Shown: positions 24,385 to 47,268 of the stretch, piece by piece | Layout: each line of letters starts with the position of its first letter | Numbering within the stretch: the stretch's first letter is position 1 | NCBI GenBank assembly: GCA_963816145.1 | Contig: CAWFJP010000023.1 | Location: 11,290-75,289 of the forward strand | Direction: 5' to 3' | From: an uncultured delta proteobacterium | GTDB taxonomy: Bacteria; Desulfobacterota; Binatia; UBA9968 | DNA: 64,000 nt | The notes under the pieces: generated by a model | Told to the model about the DNA's origin: nothing | Database searches by the model: none | Seen by the model: the letters and a program-made list of their open reading frames with translations, nothing else | Made by a program: the position numbers and the translations under genes

Positions 24385-26112
24385 CTATGAACTCGGGTGG
24401 CCGGCCGCCTGCATTTGCTTAAGAATCCCGTCCAGGTTGTAGGTTTCCGGCGCCTGCATCGGCGGGAAATCCTTGTACGAAAAAAGCTCCTTCTCCCAGA
24501 GCAACTGCCCGAGCGGCAGCATGTTCCAGTTGTAAATATAAGCGTTGCCGGCGGAACCAATTGATCCGCCGTAGCCAATGATTGACTTCGCATCGGCACC
24601 GACCGTCTGCTCGAAGGGATCACGCTTGATGTTGGTGAGCTGGGTCCAGTGGTAGGTAACCGCGCCAAACAGCCCGCCGACCGCGGTGTCGGGCACCATC
24701 GTGTAGTACATTTTCCAGTTCTTGTAGCGCACCGCCGACGGTTGCGATCCCGTATAGTAGAAGAAAACTTCACGCGCCGACTTCTCGGACTTGCCTTCGA
24801 GGTAGTCAGTCTGGTCGACGCCGTCGAGCTTGGTCTTGCGGATCCCAGGATACTTGCCGGCCATGATCTGCTCGTTAAGCGCAGTGCCTTTCGGTCCGCC
24901 GGCGATGTTGACCAGCGTCGGCAACCAGTCCAATGCGGCGAACAATCCGTTCTTGACCGTGCCCGGCTTGATGTGGCCGGGCCAGCGGACCACCAGCGGA
25001 GCCTTCATGCCGCCTTCCCACGTGGTCAGCTTGCCGCCCTTGAAGGGGGTGGTGCCGCCGTCCGGGAAAGTTATATTCTCGGCGCCATTGTCAGTCGTGA
25101 AGACAAGAATGGTGTTGTCGAGTTCACCCATATCCTCGAGCTTTTTGATCACATAGCCGATGTTGTCATCCAACTGCTTCATGCCGGCTTCGTTAAGGCC
25201 CCAGTCCTTGCCGCCTGGTTCGCCGACCATGGCCTCGTATTTCGGCGGGAGTACAGTTGTGATATGCATGCGCGCCGGGTTGTACCAGACGAAGAAAGGC
25301 TTGTTGGTCTTCTTCGGGTCGTTGCGGTCGAGATAATCGATGACCTTGGACGAGATTTCTTCGTCCACTGTCTTCGACCGCTCCAGCGTTAACGGACCCT
25401 GGTCTTGGCATGTCTGATTCGCCTGGGTGCCATCACTGGACCTGCACCAAATGACCGGGCGCGGCGGGGTCAGGCAGGTCGAGGTCCGCGGATCCAAGCC
25501 ACCGGGGACCTCCGGCAAGCCAGGGACCGGTGAGTTCCGGCACGGCGGCGCGATCCCTTGGACAAGTGGGGTTTTGTTTAAGTCGACGAAGCTCACGCCT
25601 TGCATGGCGTCGAGGTGGTACAGGTAACCCCAGTATTCCTGGAAGCCGTGCGCGGTCGGCAGGGACTCGGCGTGATCGCCCAAGTGATTCTTGCCGAACT
25701 CGCCGGTGTTGTAACCAAGGTCGAGCAGGAACTTGGCCACCGCCGGCGTGCCGGCGCGCAGCCACGACGGGCTGCCGGGCAGCTGCGGCGGAATCATGCC
25801 GGTGCGCAGCGGCGTCATGCCGGTAAAGAAGGCATTGCGCCCTGCCGTGCAGCTCTGCTCTGTCAGATAGTCCATGAAGATCGCGCCCTCTTGACCGATG
25901 CGGTCGATGTTGGGCGTTTCGCCGACCATTAAACCACGGTGATAGATGCTCGGCTGCATCCAGCCGATGTCATCGCCCATGATGAACATGATATTCGGTT
26001 TCTTCTGCTGCGCCGCCGCTGGTCCTGCTATTAGGCCCAGCAATGCCAGCAATATGAATGTTGTCATTGAAAACTTTTTCCCGTATCTCATAAAATCTCT
26101 CCTCTTCTCCAT
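24385..26112 (-). CDS. Arylsulfatase (formylglycine-dependent type I sulfatase)
   Basis: 575 aa with a signal peptide. IMFIMGDDIGW and the C-x-A-x-R variant of the sulfatase signature (SCTAGRNAFFTGM), plus the conserved TDNGAE and TPFKGGK blocks. Confidence 0.9.
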   Translation of the reverse strand: MEKRRDFMRYGKKFSMTTFILLALLGLIAGPAAAQQKKPNIMFIMGDDIGWMQPSIYHRGLMVGETPNIDRIGQEGAIFMDYLTEQSCTAGRNAFFTGMTPLRTGMIPPQLPGSPSWLRAGTPAVAKFLLDLGYNTGEFGKNHLGDHAESLPTAHGFQEYWGYLYHLDAMQGVSFVDLNKTPLVQGIAPPCRNSPVPGLPEVPGGLDPRTSTCLTPPRPVIWCRSSDGTQANQTCQDQGPLTLERSKTVDEEISSKVIDYLDRNDPKKTNKPFFVWYNPARMHITTVLPPKYEAMVGEPGGKDWGLNEAGMKQLDDNIGYVIKKLEDMGELDNTILVFTTDNGAENITFPDGGTTPFKGGKLTTWEGGMKAPLVVRWPGHIKPGTVKNGLFAALDWLPTLVNIAGGPKGTALNEQIMAGKYPGIRKTKLDGVDQTDYLEGKSEKSAREVFFYYTGSQPSAVRYKNWKMYYTMVPDTAVGGLFGAVTYHWTQLTNIKRDPFEQTVGADAKSIIGYGGSIGSAGNAYIYNWNMLPLGQLLWEKELFSYKDFPPMQAPETYNLDGILKQMQAAGHPSS

Positions 26113-26146: not shown

Positions 26147-26467
26147 CTACACGCCGCAGGCGAACTTGATCTCGGCGATTCGTTCGTCGATCCGTTTGTT
26201 ATATTCACCGGTCGCAACCCTAAGCTTTGTCCCTGTAGTCCCGGTAACCAGGCCAAGGACGATCCCAGCTGGAACAAGCGATGTAACCCCGGCGACAACT
26301 TGCCTTGCCACATGGGCTTTTTCCGATTCCAGGACACGTATATCTCCTTCGGCGACGTCACAGTTGATTGGCTGCTTGAGCGACTTTTCAACGCTCCTTT
26401 CCTGGAACGCGCACCCCGTCAGCGTCATCGCGGCAAAAATAATTACGACTTGCTTCTTCATGGTCAC
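26147..26467 (-). CDS. Small lipoprotein, unknown function
   Basis: 106 aa with lipobox AAMTLTGC. A Gly-rich hydrophobic stretch (VAGVTSLVPAGIVLGLVTGTTG) is present. Confidence 0.55.
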   Translation of the reverse strand: MTMKKQVVIIFAAMTLTGCAFQERSVEKSLKQPINCDVAEGDIRVLESEKAHVARQVVAGVTSLVPAGIVLGLVTGTTGTKLRVATGEYNKRIDERIAEIKFACGV

Positions 26468-27026: not shown

Positions 27027-27042
27027 AGCAGTTATCAGGCCA
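27027..27042 (-). promoter_or_regulatory. Candidate sigma-54 (-24/-12) promoter
   Basis: The minus strand reads TGGCCTG-ATAA-CTGCT, against consensus TGGCACG-N4-TTGCW. The GG and GC are correctly spaced. It lies ~55 bp upstream of the ABM-like gene start and ~310 bp downstream of the activator gene. Confidence 0.35.
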
Positions 27043-27147: not shown

Positions 27148-27188
27148 CTGAGATCTCAGGATATGGCGAAGTCTCAAAATGTTGAGAC
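27148..27188. promoter_or_regulatory. Two perfect palindromes at enhancer distance from the -24/-12 candidate
   Basis: CTGAGATCTCAG (27148-27159) and GTCTCAA-AATG-TTGAGAC (27171-27188), 105-160 bp upstream of the -24 element. Confidence 0.25.
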
Positions 27189-27353: not shown

Positions 27354-30300
27354 TTATTTCTGGGTTTGCCCTGGTGTATAGCCCGAGATTTTGGTCAATC
27401 CCAGTTTTTTCATGCGGAACCTGAGCGTCGATGGATGAAGTTTTAGCATCGCCGCCGAACCGTTAGGCCCATTGATACGCCACCCGGTCGCCTCAAGCGC
27501 CCGCAGAATGTGGTCCCGCTCTGCTTCGTTCAACGACGATACGCTGGTCGATTCGTAGGAATGCTTAACCTCGCTGAGAGCTGTATTCGTTGCTTGAAGT
27601 AGCGGTTCAGGCAAGCGCAAAACGCCATCCGATGAGACGATCACCGCCCGCTCGATCACGTTTTGCAGTTCGCGGATGTTACCCGGCCAGTTATACTCCG
27701 TGAATGCGCGCATCACTTGCGCCGGCACTTCGCTGATAGTCTTGCCCAAACGTTCCCCGAGCTGTCGCGCATAATGGCTTACCAGCAATGGAATGTCTTC
27801 CCGTCGTTGCGACAGCGGGGGAATGGTAATCGGATAGACATTGAGCCGATAATAAAGATCCTGGCGGAACCGGCCCGCCGAGACCTCGTCATGCAATTTG
27901 CGGTTGGTTGCCGCAATGACTCGGACCTTGACCTTGATCGTGCTCGAACCACCGACCCGCTCAAACTCGCCTTCCTGCAGCACGCGCAAAAGTTTCGCTT
28001 GCGTCCCGGCGGGCAGCTCCCCGACTTCATCGAGCAGGATCGTGCCACCGTCGGCGAGCTCGAATCGGCCTTTGCGTTGGCGCTCCGCGCCTGTAAAGGC
28101 GCCTTTTTCATGGCCAAACAGTTCGCTCTCGACGAGAGCCTCAGGCAGCGTTGCGCAGTTCACCTTTATGTATGGCCGGTCGAATCGGGAACTTCTGTCG
28201 TGGATCGCGCGCGCAATGAGTTCCTTGCCCACGCCAGTCTCGCCCTGCAACAGCACGGTGGCGTCGGTCTTAGCCACTTGCTCCACCCGCGTGAGCACAT
28301 ATTTCAAGGCGTCGCTCTTGCCGACGATTTCTTCGAAGCCCTTTACCTCGGAAATCTCCTCCTTTAGATAGAGGTTTTCCTCCTCGAGACGCTCTTTAAG
28401 GCCGCGGATCTCGTCGAAAGCCGCGTTGAGATCATGCTCCGCCTGCTTGCGCGCGGTGACATCGCTGATCGAAGCCAAAACGAACAGTCCTCGCGGCGTG
28501 CGCAGCGGACTAAGGCCGATTTCGAGCGGGACTTCACTGCCGTCTTTGCGGCGGCCGAAAATTTCACCATTGGCGCCCATCGGGCGCAATTGTGGATCGG
28601 CAACGTAATTTTGCCGATCTCGCAAATGATTGACGCGGAACCGCTCGGGAATCAGCATTTCGATGGGTTGGCCGATCAGCTGGCCGCGCGAGTAACCGAA
28701 AAGCGCCTCCGCGGCCGCGTTGACCGAACTGATAATGCCCGCGCGATCCACCAGGATCATGCCATTGGGCGCCGCCTCGAGAATTTGCCGCGAGCGCTCT
28801 TCGGCCTGCTTGCGCTCGGTAATGTCCAATACCACGCCCATCCGGCGCCCTGCAGCGCCGCTGGATTCATTACTGGCGCGACCGCGCGTCAGCACCCATC
28901 GCTCGCTGCCGTCGGGACCGACCACGCGAAATTCCCCTTCATAGGAGCTGCCGGCCTGTTGCATGCGTGCAACCTCGGCGGCGACACGGGCTCGATCATC
29001 AGGATGAACCGCGCCGAGCAGATCTTCGAATCGGAGCGCATCGTTCGCTGCTAAGCCGAACCATGTCCGCAAGCGCGGATTGGCCCACACTTCACCGCGT
29101 GCTAAATCGCGCACCCACAGGCCGAGCTCGCCGGCTTCGGTGGAGAGTTCCAAGAATTCCTGGCTCTCCCGAAGTTGAGTCTCCGCGCGACGGCGCCGCC
29201 TGCGTTGCAAAAGCAAACCAGAGATCATTGCCGCTTGAACCAGAATGGTGGCGAGTACGGCGATGATGTACCAATGGTATTGCTCCCAGATTGAAGGCGA
29301 ACGAAATCGAATAACTCTGCCTTGGGGTAATCGTGATTCGTCGATGCCCCAGCGCTTCAACTCGCGCCAGTCGTACTCTGGTGCCGCTGGTTTCAAGAAT
29401 ACGGGCTTGATACTACTTGCGGATGTCCCGTTAAGAATCCGGAGCGCTATTTGGGCCGACTGCCGGCTCACTTCCTGGTACGGAGACAACGGGCCGCCAA
29501 CGATGCCCCCGCCGAGTTGATGATCAAAGATTCCGAAGATCGGGGCGTTACTATGTTGTCGAAGCACATCGAGAGCTCTTTCCTGTTCGTAGGGCACACC
29601 GGCCGCGTCAACAACCAGTAGAAAATACACGATTGCTGAGTCAGGCGGGAGCCTGGACAAGCGCCGGTCTAGCTCCTCGAATGAGAGCTCATTGAGCCAA
29701 TTGAATTGGACGCGTTTGGTTAAGTGCTGCGTATCCCGGCGGAATTCCGCCTGCCAGTATTTTTCGAAGGGCGAGTTGCCGGTTACGACTTCAATGTTCC
29801 TGGTTTTAGGCAAAATCCGCAAAATGTGTTCGACGATCCCCGCCAGATCCAGACTGATCCCGAACGCCGTAGCATTGCTGCGGTTTAGCTCGCCTACACG
29901 CCGATTGTCGGCGGCCACCACTAGCATGGGAACCTTCGGCAACAGAATGTCGCCGTGTCGCTGCAAGAAAAACATCGCCGGAGCGCCGATCGGCACAATC
30001 AGGTCCGGGGGTCGTTTAGTGAACAGGGCGCGCAAGTAGTTGACCAAGGGAGTTTCCGAACCGGCTTCGGCAAACATCGTGGATTCCAAGGAAGCCTCGA
30101 GAAAATCGATAGGGGCCGCCGATTGCCGGGCCAGTTCCGCGCGAAACGTCGTCGATACAGCTGTGAACGGCGCAAAATTCCGACCAAACGAATGTAAGAT
30201 TAATACCCGTCTGACTTGCGGCTTGTCGGTAGCTTTGCCCTCTTTGACCGCAGGAATGTTCTTCGCATCCTGCGCCCTCGCAGGCAAACCTAGAATTAGT

Positions 30301-30476
30301 AAACACACCGCGACTAGCAGCAACCGATGCGAAAAATGAAATAGGGGTGAGATTCTAGTTTTTTGCGGACGTGCCCGCCGCGCAGGCAGTCCCAAACTTG
30401 AGGTAGGGGCAAATTCCATTGCGAAACTCTTAGCCGGGTCGACGCCCGGCAATATACCGAGTGGTGCGCGCAACAA
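27354..30476 (-). CDS. Membrane-anchored sigma-54-dependent transcriptional activator (periplasmic PBP-like sensor, TM, 2 PAS, AAA+, HTH)
   Basis: 1040 aa. N-terminal signal anchor, ~330-aa periplasmic domain, TM helix ([21 protein letters not shown]) and two PAS/PAC units (DITERK, DVTARK). The sigma-54 interaction domain has Walker [15 protein letters not shown] and [11 protein letters not shown]-terminal Fis-type HTH. The true start may be the internal ATG at 30419. Confidence 0.9.
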
Positions 30477-30817: not shown

Positions 30818-31258
30818 TTATCGCTTCGAATCGCCGGCGGTATGATTCACGATCGCCTGATGCACGTTTTCGAACATCAGCGGCTTTCTTAAGCACTGAT
30901 AAATTCCACGATGCTCCAGCTCTGCCGGCTCAGGCACCGACCGAAACCCCACCATTCCCAGGATCAAGGCTTTCGGCACAAAAGTTCTCGCGTGGCGCAG
31001 AAGCGATTTCCAGTGCGGCATATCGAGATCAGATAGAACCACCGCGAGATCCAAATTTTTGTCTATACAGGAAATCGCCGCCTCACGGTCAGCAGCCTGA
31101 AACACCCGATAGCCATCATGTTGTAGCAACTCCGCGAGACTGATACGCGCAAGCGGATACGATTCCACGACGAGAACTGCGGGCGGTAGAACTAGGGACG
31201 GATTCGCTGAGTACTCAATCATGTCAATAGTGCCAAAGTAATCGCCGCTTATTCCCAT
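30818..31258 (-). CDS. Stand-alone receiver (REC) domain protein, atypical acidic pocket
   Basis: 146 aa. VLVVESYPLARISLAELL...VVLSDLDMP...CLRKP matches a CheY-like fold, but the N-terminal DD pair is replaced by ES. Confidence 0.6.
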   Translation of the reverse strand: MGISGDYFGTIDMIEYSANPSLVLPPAVLVVESYPLARISLAELLQHDGYRVFQAADREAAISCIDKNLDLAVVLSDLDMPHWKSLLRHARTFVPKALILGMVGFRSVPEPAELEHRGIYQCLRKPLMFENVHQAIVNHTAGDSKR

Positions 31259-31609: not shown

Positions 31610-32059
31610 GTGACGAATCTCGACCGCCAGAATTGTCAGTGCGGCGATGACTCAGGCGAAGACACGAAATCCTTGCCGAGACTGACGCTGCTCGCGCAAA
31701 GCCGCCAAGTTTCACCGGATGAACTGCCAGACGAGAAAGCGCGCAAAGCCGGACTCTCGCCGAAGTGCATACTGAAAGCCGATAAAGACAGCGGTCGGAT
31801 TGTCATCGATAGCGAAACGACGCTAACCGGCATCCCACCCGAAGCTTGGGATTACCGACTCGGCAACCGCTCAGCGCTCGAATGGATTCTCGACCAGTAC
31901 AAAGAAAAGAAACCGAAGGACCCGACGATCCGCGAAAAGTTCAACACCTACCGATTCGCCGACTACAAAGAAAAAGTAATCGATTTGTTAATGCGCGTAA
32001 CCACCGTGAGCGTCAAGACCGTTTCCGTGATCGACGCGATGAAACGCGCTTCTCGCTGA
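31610..32059 (+). pseudogene. 3'-terminal relic of a type ISP/IIG restriction-modification enzyme
   Basis: Only the last ~100 codons look native: IVIDSETTLTGIPPEAWDYRLGNRSALEWILDQYKEKKPKDPTIREKFNTYRFADYKEKVIDLLMRVTTVSV. I recall this as the conserved C-terminal tail of >1000-aa type ISP enzymes. No upstream methylase or helicase domains are present. Confidence 0.6.
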
Positions 32060-32546: not shown

Positions 32547-34235
32547 CTATCTTAGCGTGATCTTCATGCCGGCAGGTCCGACGCTCAATTGCGTGCCGGA
32601 CTCCTGGCCTTCGTTTTTCAGGATCACGATGGTCACGCCCCGTTCATTTTTCATCGACATGGCGCTGGCTCCTCCGGCGATGGCAAAGGTCGCCTGGCTT
32701 GCCGCGTAGCTGCCGGTCAAATCCCCCGGGCTCCTCAGATCGTAAACTTTCCCAGCGCCGGTATAAGTCGAGACACCGATGTCCGCCAGGCTCATGCCCG
32801 AAATCGAGAACGGATAGCTCCTTCCCTGAAAGTTAAGCGTGCCCTCGCCCGAACTCCCGCCTACTCCCAAGGCCACGGTTCTCAGAGTCAGTGTGACCAG
32901 CCCCGACGGCAGTCTTTCGTCGGGCTTCTTGTAATCCGGATAGGTCTCCACCCAACTGAACAACTGTGCTTCGGCGCGATCATGAATCTGCCAGCCCCGG
33001 CTCTGGATTTCTTTTCGCGCCCGCGGGCTCAGCGTGCCGGTGAGCCAGATTTGTTTTTCCTTGACCCCCGGCAATGCGTTCACCAACTTATTCCCCGCCG
33101 TTATCATCTGCGCCATCGGTTCGGTCCAGGCCACATAGTCCGCCGGGAAATTGACCACCAACGCACCATTGGTGGCGCGGCTCACGGCGAATTGTCCGAG
33201 GGGGATGAAATTTGCCAAGGGCGCCACCGACTTGTTGTAACCGGCATACATTTGCGCTTGGCGCTGGCGGAAGAATGCGATCATCGGGTTCTGGGTCGCC
33301 AGCGACAACCGAATCAATGCGCCACGGTCCGCCACGCCGTTCATCTCGCCCAATGCATGAACCATAAGGGTCTGCTCGCGCGGCGAAAAAACCGTGTTGT
33401 TTATATACGTGTCAGCGATCTCGGGATGGACTCCCATGGCAAGGAGTTTTTCGGTATTCATCTTGCGCAGCGCCACCGGCGGGGTGGTTTGGAAGATCTG
33501 GTTCAACAGTTTGTTGGTGCCGATGACGGTCATGGCGACACCGGCGCCGCCCGGCACCGCCGCCATCGCTGCCGACCAGGTTAGTGATCCCGCATAGCCG
33601 GCCCATGAGATCTTGTTCAACATGTCCTGCAGCTTCTGGTTGTCCGAATAAACATCGACGTCGAACTGATAAGCGTACTCCCGTTTGGTCGTCGAGAATC
33701 CAATGGCGTCTTTGATGCGCGCATCCTCGGACGCGCTGCGGTCGGCGCCAAACAGGCTTTCGCCGACCCTGGAAAAGGCCGCGCCCAAACCCTGCACCGC
33801 GCCGCTCACGGTCTTCACTGGGCTGGTGATCAGACTGAGAGCGCTGGTCATGGCGTCGAGCCCGCCCTCTTTAATGGAATCGACGTATTCCTTGCTGCCC
33901 TGGACCTTCTCCATCACGACCATGGCGTTAATCTCGCCGATGCGCTTCCTCAACATGGCGGTGGAAATGGCCGTGAAGGTGCCGAACTTGGAATCGATCT
34001 GGTAGGTGTTTAAAAAGCCGTCGTTGGTAACTCGCTCCTGGACCCGATGATTCGGTCCGGACAAAAGCTCGGGTGGCAAAATCTTTGACGCGCTGAGCAC
34101 CGGCGCGGTCTCATAGGGCTGCTGGGCAAAAGCCGGTGTGACGGCTGCCAAAAGTAATCCCATCGCTACGGCGCTAATTAATCTCCATAACGGCTTGCGC
34201 AAGTTAAATCTCGGGTCGGTATTTTTGCTATTCAT
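32547..34235 (-). CDS. Large secreted protein of unknown function
   Basis: 562-aa ORF with signal peptide LLLAAVTPAFAQQ. No motif I recognise. The uninterrupted reading frame in GC-rich DNA supports coding. Confidence 0.7.
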   Translation of the reverse strand: MNSKNTDPRFNLRKPLWRLISAVAMGLLLAAVTPAFAQQPYETAPVLSASKILPPELLSGPNHRVQERVTNDGFLNTYQIDSKFGTFTAISTAMLRKRIGEINAMVVMEKVQGSKEYVDSIKEGGLDAMTSALSLITSPVKTVSGAVQGLGAAFSRVGESLFGADRSASEDARIKDAIGFSTTKREYAYQFDVDVYSDNQKLQDMLNKISWAGYAGSLTWSAAMAAVPGGAGVAMTVIGTNKLLNQIFQTTPPVALRKMNTEKLLAMGVHPEIADTYINNTVFSPREQTLMVHALGEMNGVADRGALIRLSLATQNPMIAFFRQRQAQMYAGYNKSVAPLANFIPLGQFAVSRATNGALVVNFPADYVAWTEPMAQMITAGNKLVNALPGVKEKQIWLTGTLSPRARKEIQSRGWQIHDRAEAQLFSWVETYPDYKKPDERLPSGLVTLTLRTVALGVGGSSGEGTLNFQGRSYPFSISGMSLADIGVSTYTGAGKVYDLRSPGDLTGSYAASQATFAIAGGASAMSMKNERGVTIVILKNEGQESGTQLSVGPAGMKITLR

Positions 34236-46626: not shown

Positions 46627-47268
46627 TCACCTACGAGCGCTTGCGGCTGTCGGCTGTTTCTGCGCTGGGATACCGACTTTTTCTGCCAGCCGTACCAGCT
46701 CCGCAATCGAATCCACTGCCATCTTTTCCATCACCCGGGAGCGATGAACTTTGATGGTTTTCTCGACTGTGCCGAGCTCCCATGCGATTTGCTTGTTTAA
46801 CATTCCGGTGACCACCAGGGCCATGACTTCGCGCTCGCGCGGCGTGAGCGACTCCAGACGCCGGCGGATGTCGACCAGTTGGGCGGCCTCGGCACGCTGC
46901 CCGGCCGCCCGTGCCAGCGCCTGCTCGATGGCGGGCAAGAGAGTTTCTTGGCAAACCGGCTTGGGCAGGAAATCCACCGCCCCGGCTTTCATCGCCTGCA
47001 CGCCCATCGGGATATCGCCGTACCCGGTGATGAAGATAATCGGAATGGCTATTTTCGCCGCTTGCAACGCCTCCTGAAGCTCCAAGCCGTTGACACCGGG
47101 CATACGCACATCGAGGACAAGACAGGCGACCCCCGCGGTTTCAGGCTTGGACTCGAGAAACTGCCGGGCCGATGCGAACGGCGCGACCTCATAGCCCGCC
47201 GCGCGAATCAGCCGCGCCAGCGCTTTGCGCACCGAGCTATCGTCGTCGACCAAAAACACCGTCGTCAT
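46627..47268 (-). CDS. FixJ/NarL-family response regulator (REC + LuxR-type HTH)
   Basis: 213 aa. VFLVDDDSSVRKAL...LVLDVRMPGVNGLE...IIFITGYGDIPM...LTPREREVMALVVTGMLNKQIAWELGTVEKTIKVHRSRVMEKM. Overlaps the kinase stop (ATGA). Confidence 0.9.
   Translation of the reverse strand: MTTVFLVDDDSSVRKALARLIRAAGYEVAPFASARQFLESKPETAGVACLVLDVRMPGVNGLELQEALQAAKIAIPIIFITGYGDIPMGVQAMKAGAVDFLPKPVCQETLLPAIEQALARAAGQRAEAAQLVDIRRRLESLTPREREVMALVVTGMLNKQIAWELGTVEKTIKVHRSRVMEKMAVDSIAELVRLAEKVGIPAQKQPTAASARR

Follow-up and report, generated by a model that had tools for sequence, protein, structure and literature searches.

Bacterial enhancer-binding proteins (bEBPs) are, in the textbook description, soluble AAA+ hexamers that reach sigma-54 RNA polymerase by DNA looping. 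Soluble one-component members, of the class of FhlA, NifA, NorR and DhaR, carry PAS or GAF domains and a coiled-coil linker upstream of an AAA+ domain with its GAFTGA loop, a lid and a Fis-type helix-turn-helix (HTH), and have their target promoter beside the regulator gene. The input domains of the enhancer-binding proteins (EBPs) surveyed in Clostridiales are mostly without transmembrane regions (PMC6615313). The gene studied here lies on the minus strand of a 64,000-nucleotide stretch of DNA from an uncultured delta proteobacterium of the Binatia (GenBank assembly GCA_963816145.1, contig CAWFJP010000023.1, positions 11,290 to 75,289; hereafter the window). It encodes an activator with the same output module, the same PAS and linker arrangement upstream of the AAA+ domain and a likely target promoter beside its gene, but adds a predicted signal peptide, a periplasmic sensor of ~330 residues and a transmembrane helix ahead of the PAS domains. 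I propose, with a probability of about 0.7, that this protein is a one-component, membrane-anchored bEBP whose periplasmic part is a Venus-flytrap sensor, and that it likely drives the adjacent operon, headed by an ABM-domain gene, without a kinase relay.

Regulators that combine an extracytoplasmic sensor, a transmembrane segment and a DNA-binding domain in one polypeptide, and that therefore contact DNA from the membrane, have been described, among them ToxR, CadC, TcpP, TfoS and the hybrid two-component systems of Bacteroides (PMC10269533). The activator resembles them in this respect, and by the definition used in that work, a predicted transmembrane region together with a DNA-binding domain, its sequence and model make it a transmembrane transcription regulator. 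Those of the ToxR type, however, use sigma-70 promoters and winged-helix or AraC domains and have no ATPase ring. HTH_8 occurs in 72 of the 50,302 transmembrane transcription regulators surveyed there, and sigma-54 is never discussed (PMC10269533). Rsp of Neisseria gonorrhoeae likewise unites a membrane receptor part and an EBP-type regulator in one protein (PMC10269533), but its membrane domain is multi-pass and of the PilS type, it has no periplasmic binding-protein domain and it is regarded as a remnant. A paper on the Desulfovibrio regulome remarks only on "long conserved N-terminal regions" in DVU0151 and DVUA0100 (PMC4641369). In the literature covered, which misses most subscription journals, no paper was found that describes or tests a bEBP anchored in the membrane and equipped with a binding-protein domain as periplasmic sensor; the family to which the activator belongs is recurrent, sizeable and apparently undescribed.

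A complete activator module behind a predicted transmembrane helix

On the minus strand, the open reading frame (ORF) 27354-30476 runs through without internal stops. An initial annotation of the window had given this whole frame as the gene. The frame is real and uninterrupted, but translation probably begins at ATG 30419 and not at TTG 30476, because homologues begin at this ATG or later and because near-identical database proteins are 1021 residues long. Protein P0001, for instance, is 99% identical to the activator, has 1021 residues and contains two PAS domains by Pfam.

The same annotation had recognised a sigma-54 activator from its GAFTGA, Walker A/B and Fis HTH motifs, and both Pfam and the motifs confirm a complete module. 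The sigma-54 interaction domain (Sigma54_activat, PF00158) is matched at residues 717-883 with an E-value of 2.6e-72 and its lid (AAA_lid_14, PF25601) at residues 890-955 with an E-value of 9.4e-22; a conserved coiled-coil linker precedes them. Walker A (GETGVGKE), GAFTGA and Walker B (LLDEVGE) are all readable and are near-invariant across the family, represented here by an alignment of 24 members, namely the window activator and 23 homologous activators. The C-terminal HTH_8 is likewise highly conserved in this alignment. Since the output half as a whole is 85-90% conserved across these 24 diverged members, it appears to be under purifying selection. The best NCBIfam matches, which cover the output half only, are FhlA, NifA and NorR, and none of the NCBIfam equivalogs reaches its cut-off against the activator. 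No HisKA or HATPase_c domain is found in it by Pfam; only its input part is common with kinases. The polymerase partner is available: the same genome encodes RpoN (a 505-residue ORF on contig C11; PF04552, E-value 1.2e-62), along with 34 sigma-54 interaction domains.

A Kyte-Doolittle scan of the activator yields exactly two hydrophobic segments, 48-66 and 404-422 (ORF numbering), at the positions of the signal peptide and of the transmembrane helix. The second is followed by QRRRRRRAE, which fits the positive-inside rule. This pattern predicts that the ~330 residues between the two hydrophobic stretches are periplasmic and that everything after residue ~425 is cytoplasmic, and the activator would thus reside in the membrane. 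Hydropathy and the structural model support the periplasmic domain and the transmembrane helix that had been read ahead of the output. The N-terminal signal anchor that had been read with them is a different matter, because the first hydrophobic segment ends in an AxA/Q(E/D) motif (the slash marks the predicted cut) that is kept in 20 homologues and reads LGLPARA/QDAKN here. A cleavable signal peptide is consequently more likely than an anchor.

The periplasmic domain resembles stand-alone PF04392 proteins

The fold of the periplasmic domain was approached by modelling. An AlphaFold (AF2) model of residues 60-440, built from an alignment of 66 sequences, has a mean predicted local distance difference test (pLDDT) of 89 and a predicted template modelling score (pTM) of 0.80. 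It shows an alternating beta-alpha domain with two lobes, after which a single long helix extends through the transmembrane segment. When the model was compared with the PDB by Foldseek, the top five matches were 3LFT (two chains), 6HNJ, 3LKV and 6HNI, all of them PF04392 proteins, with E-values of 1.6e-13 to 9e-12 and target TM-scores (template modelling scores) of 0.64-0.72; sugar-binding proteins and LacI-type cores came next. On the strength of this model, the domain is a type-I periplasmic-binding-protein fold distantly related to PF04392, which gives a name to what had been noted as a binding-protein-like region.

The stand-alone PF04392 proteins that match best are those of S. pneumoniae (3LFT, with L-Trp), C. 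difficile (CD0873, 6HNI/6HNJ) and V. cholerae (3LKV). The activator's domain shares only 14-17% sequence identity with them and differs in being fused to a transmembrane helix, as befits a sensor rather than a transporter partner; it ends in a conserved juxtamembrane motif, FR.PS.WEQY. Solved PF04392 members bind L-Trp, L-Tyr and L-Phe (PMC10443332). Because the identity to these proteins is so low, the analogy is only a hint that the activator's ligand may be an aromatic amino acid.

On the cytoplasmic side, the first PAS domain (PAS1) is found throughout the family, while among the aligned activators the second (PAS2) is present only in the window protein and in P0105, a metagenome protein described below; most homologues lack it. 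A search of PDB sequences with PAS2 retrieved FixL (1D06, E-value 7.5e-16; 1DP6, E-value 1.7e-14) and DosP (E-value 3e-09). When PAS2 is aligned with FixL of R. meliloti (RmFixL), the His within RVNHLRD falls on the proximal His194, and the equivalent of Arg214 is kept. Since PAS2 matches the haem PAS domains of FixL and DosP with the proximal His aligned, it is a candidate haem-binding domain, which suggests that the activator also responds to O2 or redox.

The architecture recurs in a family

Proteins at least 90% identical to the activator and of the same length (1021 residues) are encoded on five other long contigs (63-295 kb) of separate assemblies, and the whole architecture is shared by the 23 further activators of the alignment. 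The ORF is therefore not an assembly fusion of two genes, a concern raised with the first reading of the sequence and not borne out.

The extent of the family was gauged in two ways. Relatives of the input module numbered 4132 in a word-indexed search; of the best 120, ~26 have PF00158 as well, the others being kinases of the HisKA or HisKA_3 type. A profile of the 24 activators was then run against 1.84 billion representatives and a local hidden Markov model of the periplasmic module over the best matches, which places the combination of this module with a GAFTGA-type AAA+ domain in at least 34 distinct 50%-identity clusters, whose members range from 833 to 1494 residues according to the number of PAS domains. 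Family members carry generic database names, such as "formate hydrogenlyase transcriptional activator".

The distribution is patchy. No orthologue was found among the other 24 genomes of the same genus, and a full-length match occurs in only one other genome (G071, 859 residues) of 400 sampled across the phylum, a count that is a lower bound because the search scored two candidates per genome. A scan of genome contigs with the whole protein gave only two full-length relatives, the scan being dominated by the AAA+ pattern EYNWPGNI; one of the two lies on a 3.7-kb contig binned as Limnocylindrales, probably wrongly. The nearest named full-length relative, at 72% identity, is from a metagenome-assembled genome of Pyrinomonadaceae.

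P0105 (953 residues) is nearly identical to the activator from the transmembrane helix through PAS1 and PAS2 to the AAA+ domain, but its periplasmic domain is only 34% identical. It follows that periplasmic domains are swapped on a constant chassis, and P0105 is apparently the product of a recent swap. Another relative, P0002 (612 residues, 97% identical, on a 123-kb contig), appears to end after the PAS domains and to be without the AAA+ and HTH half; this short form may stem from a frameshift, from a gene call that was split or from a truncated allele.

The absence of orthologues elsewhere in the genus and the existence of P0002 are what one would expect if the activator were a decaying fusion, a chance join of a kinase input and an EBP output that no longer activates. 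Gonococcal Rsp, a PilS-PilR chimera of membrane receptor and EBP that is regarded as a remnant, provides a precedent (PMC10269533). Yet the catalytic and sigma-54-contact motifs of the activator are all intact, its output half is conserved to the degree given above, and the architecture is kept in dozens of 50% clusters. The genome also contains rpoN; N. gonorrhoeae, the host of Rsp, is presumably without functional sigma-54. The conserved promoter and ABM partner described next argue, in addition, for a working circuit. Decay is accordingly a most improbable account of the activator.

A conserved block and an ABM gene follow the activator gene

If the activator is functional, its target may be sought close by. 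Three orthologous loci were compared with the window. Across the full alignment their activators match the window protein at 71-77% identity, and across the input region at 64-73%. In five diverged loci, a small ABM-domain gene comes next after the activator: the window, the three orthologous loci (L085-87, L088 and L089) and the locus of G071 (L097), a genome from another family of the phylum.

Alignment of the intergenic regions of the window, L085, L088 and L089 reveals a conserved block of ~150 nt that consists of an inverted repeat, YCTCA-N6-TGAGR, then an AT-rich GATAATA stretch and finally TGGC-N7-CTGCT. The repeat is kept in all four loci, where its outer positions change in pairs (T..A to C..G), and the window contains a single such site against 0.21 expected; it is a candidate for the enhancer (upstream activating sequence, UAS) half of the block. 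At the other end, TGGC and CTGCT are invariant across the aligned loci. The counterpart of the window's -24/-12 element is TGGCACGAGGGCTGCT in L088 and L089, with one mismatch to the consensus, and TGGCTTAAAAACTGCT in L085. Scanning the window for TGGCAC-N5-TTGCW with at most two mismatches is uninformative by itself, because it yields 28 sites against 32 expected, none of them at 27027-27042; that site is rescued only by the cross-locus alignment. The candidate promoter proposed there from the window's sequence, weak when taken alone, thus gains support from its conservation in orthologous loci.

The genome contains one copy of the block, for which RNA folding gives no significant structure (z = -0.77). 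Since it is conserved, single-copy and without such a fold, and since rpoN is present, the block, which immediately follows the activator gene, is likely to combine the enhancer and the sigma-54 promoter from which the ABM operon is transcribed. The ABM operon is likewise the likely direct target of the activator, because the block with its terminal -24/-12 element precedes the ABM gene. A lipoprotein-like ORF and a sulfatase gene, co-directional with the ABM gene, may belong to the operon (Table 1); a sulfatase and an FGE-sulfatase (formylglycine-generating enzyme) gene also lie near the L088 orthologue.

The input module is shared with sensor kinases

The activator's input module has relatives among histidine kinases, one of which, of 1270 residues, is encoded in the window itself. 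BLASTP aligns the two proteins at 33% identity over 585 residues (E-value 3e-88), so the homology that had been claimed between their input modules is real. Two plain kinases of ~650 residues elsewhere in the 7.8-Mb genome bring the number of copies of the module to four. These three kinases and others of the same type (P0024-P0048) have an input chassis homologous to that of the activator, with the same juxtamembrane motif and transmembrane helix and with a periplasmic domain that reaches 77% identity, but they differ in their output: the activator has AAA+ and HTH domains instead of HisKA and HATPase, and with them neither a phosphorelay nor a partner response regulator.

From the homology it had been further suggested that one extracytoplasmic ligand is recognised by both the activator and the 1270-residue kinase, encoded 17 kb from it, so that a single cue would reach a sigma-54 switch and, in parallel, a FixL/FixJ-like phosphorelay. 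Colinearity of the two input modules agrees with this idea, as does the presence of two of the four copies no more than 21 kb apart. Moreover, PAS2 of the activator is ~55% identical (by eye, in the second BLASTP high-scoring pair) to the fourth PAS domain of the kinase, its closest relative in the window, and a gene near the activator encodes a secreted protein of 562 residues whose counterpart, next to one of the orthologous activators, is 76% identical. The identity between activator and kinase is, however, unevenly distributed. It amounts to 60% in the linker, 50% in PAS1, 46% in the transmembrane helix and 45% in the juxtamembrane segment, against just 25% in the ligand-binding lobes. The kinase in the window is also the most distant of the three paralogous kinases (E-value 9.8e-44, versus 4.3e-56 and 2.9e-51), whereas kinases with sensor domains 61-77% identical to the activator's exist in other organisms, one of them in a congeneric genome. 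Finally, no such kinase lies within 6 kb of the orthologous activators of L085-L089, and the linkage is not seen in L097 either. A cue common to the activator and its neighbouring kinase is therefore improbable. The data fit a common part that is a shuffled, reusable signal-transmission chassis mounted on many outputs, and they give no evidence of a shared ligand.

A histidine kinase of 1049 residues in a congeneric genome (L094, G009:C211) has a sensor module that scores 782 bits against the activator-family profile, where the activator itself scores 916. In a sister species without the activator, the same type of sensor is thus coupled to a kinase.

Proposed mode of action

The following pathway is proposed for the one-component activator. 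The protein would be exported and its signal peptide probably cleaved, which would leave the PF04392-like Venus-flytrap domain in the periplasm, joined to the cytoplasmic part by the juxtamembrane segment and the single transmembrane helix. Binding of a small ligand would close the flytrap, and the signal would pass through the transmembrane helix to PAS1, then to the FixL-like PAS2, a possible point of entry for O2 or redox, and on to the coiled-coil linker, which would free the AAA+ domains to assemble the active ring. The Fis-type HTH would occupy an enhancer within the conserved block that immediately follows the activator gene, and the ring would remodel sigma-54 RNA polymerase at TGGC-N7-CTGCT and so turn on the ABM gene, probably together with the lipoprotein and sulfatase genes. 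The scheme has no role for a histidine kinase or a receiver domain. Sequence, fold and comparative genomics support this membrane-anchored, one-component reading well.

Several observations weigh against this proposal. As to the sensor, the Pfam match of the periplasmic domain to ABC_sub_bind (PF04392), at residues 139-358, is below threshold (E-value 0.009; 15.7 bits versus a cut-off of 25.9), although homologues pass this cut-off (41.8 bits for the G071 protein; P0054 and P0058 carry a precomputed PF04392). In PAS2, the position equivalent to Arg200 of RmFixL is occupied by Asn. As to the promoter, TGGCCTGATAACTGCT has three mismatches to TGGCAC-N5-TTGCW, and sites of this quality occur at chance frequency; its -24 element is degenerate (TGGCCT). 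The candidate promoter of G071 lies only ~14 nt before the ABM start codon and makes a weaker case, and downstream genes other than the ABM gene differ between loci. As to the mode of action, no demonstration that a hexameric, DNA-looping AAA+ ring works while tethered to a membrane was found in the literature.

The last point bears on where the ring would form. One tentative version of the one-component scheme, against which I would still give the longer odds, is that the activator acts while still in the inner membrane: ligand-loaded flytraps would gather protomers into a ring under the membrane, PAS2 would add an O2/redox AND gate, and enhancer and promoter would be held near the membrane by the co-translational insertion of the product of the activator's own gene.

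The geometric problem of a DNA-looping hexamer at the membrane would vanish if the membrane form were an inactive precursor, from which site-1 and site-2 cleavage, in response to ligand or envelope stress, released a soluble PAS-AAA+-HTH fragment acting as an ordinary bEBP. Pfam architecture, hydropathy and model are all compatible with such regulated proteolysis. Anti-sigma factors such as RseA, which are released by intramembrane proteolysis, offer a precedent. The membrane-bound regulator TcpP, which is under proteolytic control, offers another (PMC10269533). In the orthologous loci, on the other hand, no protease gene is conserved beside the activator, and PAS domains between a transmembrane helix and an AAA+ domain are typical of allosteric transmission. 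The juxtamembrane motif, transmembrane helix and linker are, besides, strongly conserved across activators and kinases, at 45-60% identity even with the distant kinase of the window, which suggests conformational signalling as in the kinases, which are not cleaved. Activation by proteolysis is thus unlikely, and a signal transmitted conformationally through an intact one-component activator is preferred.

Other membrane-integral activators

Of the nearest EBP representatives with a GAFTGA-like loop, 59/134 have a strongly hydrophobic segment N-terminal to the loop. The genome of the window itself encodes a second membrane-integral activator (contig C17, plus strand, around 251317-253540; 740 residues), with about five hydrophobic segments (residues 68-234) reminiscent of PilS-type membrane domains, followed by PAS, AAA+ (GAFTGA at 477) and HTH. 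Elsewhere in the genus, activators of 1359 (L093, G017:C44) and 1196 residues (L095, G003:C12) combine PF04392-like periplasmic domains with several PAS domains, and two others, of 1211 (L090, G005:C30) and 1552 residues (L092, G017:C44), carry MASE1; L092 also has a GAF domain and, by Pfam, more than one MASE1-like stretch. L092 and L093 lie ~7 kb apart on one contig.

Features and neighbouring genes

The coordinates of the activator, its domains, the conserved block and the related genes are collected in Table 1.

Table 1. Positions, in the window, of the activator gene, its predicted domains, its candidate control elements and the associated genes.
Feature	Position	Strand	Basis or remarks
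Activator coding sequence	27354..30419	-	1021 residues from ATG 30419; open frame reaches TTG 30476
N-terminal signal peptide (predicted), residues 1-49	30273..30419	-	Hydropathy peak; basic n-region, PARA/QD cleavage motif
Type-I periplasmic-binding-protein (Venus-flytrap) domain, PF04392-like	29277..30272	-	AF2 and Foldseek
Single transmembrane helix (predicted)	29208..29273	-	Kyte-Doolittle maximum 2.38; one continuous helix in AF2 model
PAS1 (PAS_3), residues 463-548	28833..29090	-	Pfam; common to all family members
PAS2, FixL-type candidate haem-binding PAS, Pfam residues 562-672	28461..28793	-	PDB sequence search
Sigma-54 interaction AAA+ domain and lid	27612..28328	-	Pfam PF00158 and PF25601
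C-terminal Fis-type HTH (HTH_8, PF02954), residues 982-1025	27402..27533	-	23.5 bits versus cut-off 22
Inverted repeat TCTCAA-CATT-TTGAGA, candidate enhancer (UAS)	27172..27187	.	~145 bp upstream of -24 element
-24/-12 sigma-54-type element TGGCCTGATAACTGCT (candidate)	27027..27042	-	Cross-locus alignment
ABM-domain gene, 108 residues	26644..26970	-	Pfam PF03992, E-value 5e-07; conserved downstream partner
Small lipoprotein-like ORF, possible operon member	26147-26467	-	ORF list; co-directional
Secreted sulfatase, possible operon member	24385-26112	-	PF00884, E-value 4.9e-39
Paralogous sensor kinase, 1270 residues	47265-51077	-	Same input chassis, about four PAS (Pfam), HisKA, HATPase
FixJ/NarL-type response regulator of the kinase	46627-47268	-	Beside paralogous kinase

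The secreted protein of 562 residues mentioned above (window 32547-34235, minus strand) is an orphan without Pfam or NCBIfam match. Its counterpart, a protein of 560 residues (L085 8932-10614), is encoded directly after the ABM gene behind the orthologous activator, so that linkage to the activator is conserved in a different gene order. When the region upstream of the 562-residue gene was aligned across loci, no shared promoter was found, but the ABM gene of L085 came to light. An orphan gene for a REC-only protein (30818-31258, minus strand), just upstream of the activator, was considered as its partner and rejected, being absent from the orthologous loci. Those loci likewise have no counterpart of 31610-32059 (plus strand), also just upstream, where a fragment from the C-terminus of a Type ISP restriction enzyme is encoded (PF18135, E-value 2.3e-20).

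Implications

The activator raises the question of whether a bEBP ring can assemble and remodel polymerase while tethered, or whether release must come first. With sensor, enhancer, promoter and target gene within ~4 kb, the locus would provide a compact system in which to address it. If the activator does work from the membrane, transmembrane signalling would run straight to sigma-54 polymerase with no phosphorelay, and the protein would belong to a class of membrane-integral bEBPs, broad and so far undescribed, whose sensors are interchangeable: PBP-like (periplasmic-binding-protein-like) in some and MASE1 in others.

The comparison with the kinases indicates that an input chassis made of a PF04392-like domain, a juxtamembrane motif, a transmembrane helix and a PAS domain can drive a wholly different output. 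Such reuse is relevant to the way in which transmembrane signals are coupled to effectors, and also to the design of one-protein biosensors under tight sigma-54 control. For the organism itself, the ABM-domain protein and the sulfatase offer a lead to a possible response, metabolic or of the envelope, to a cue sensed in the periplasm of a soil lineage that has been little studied.

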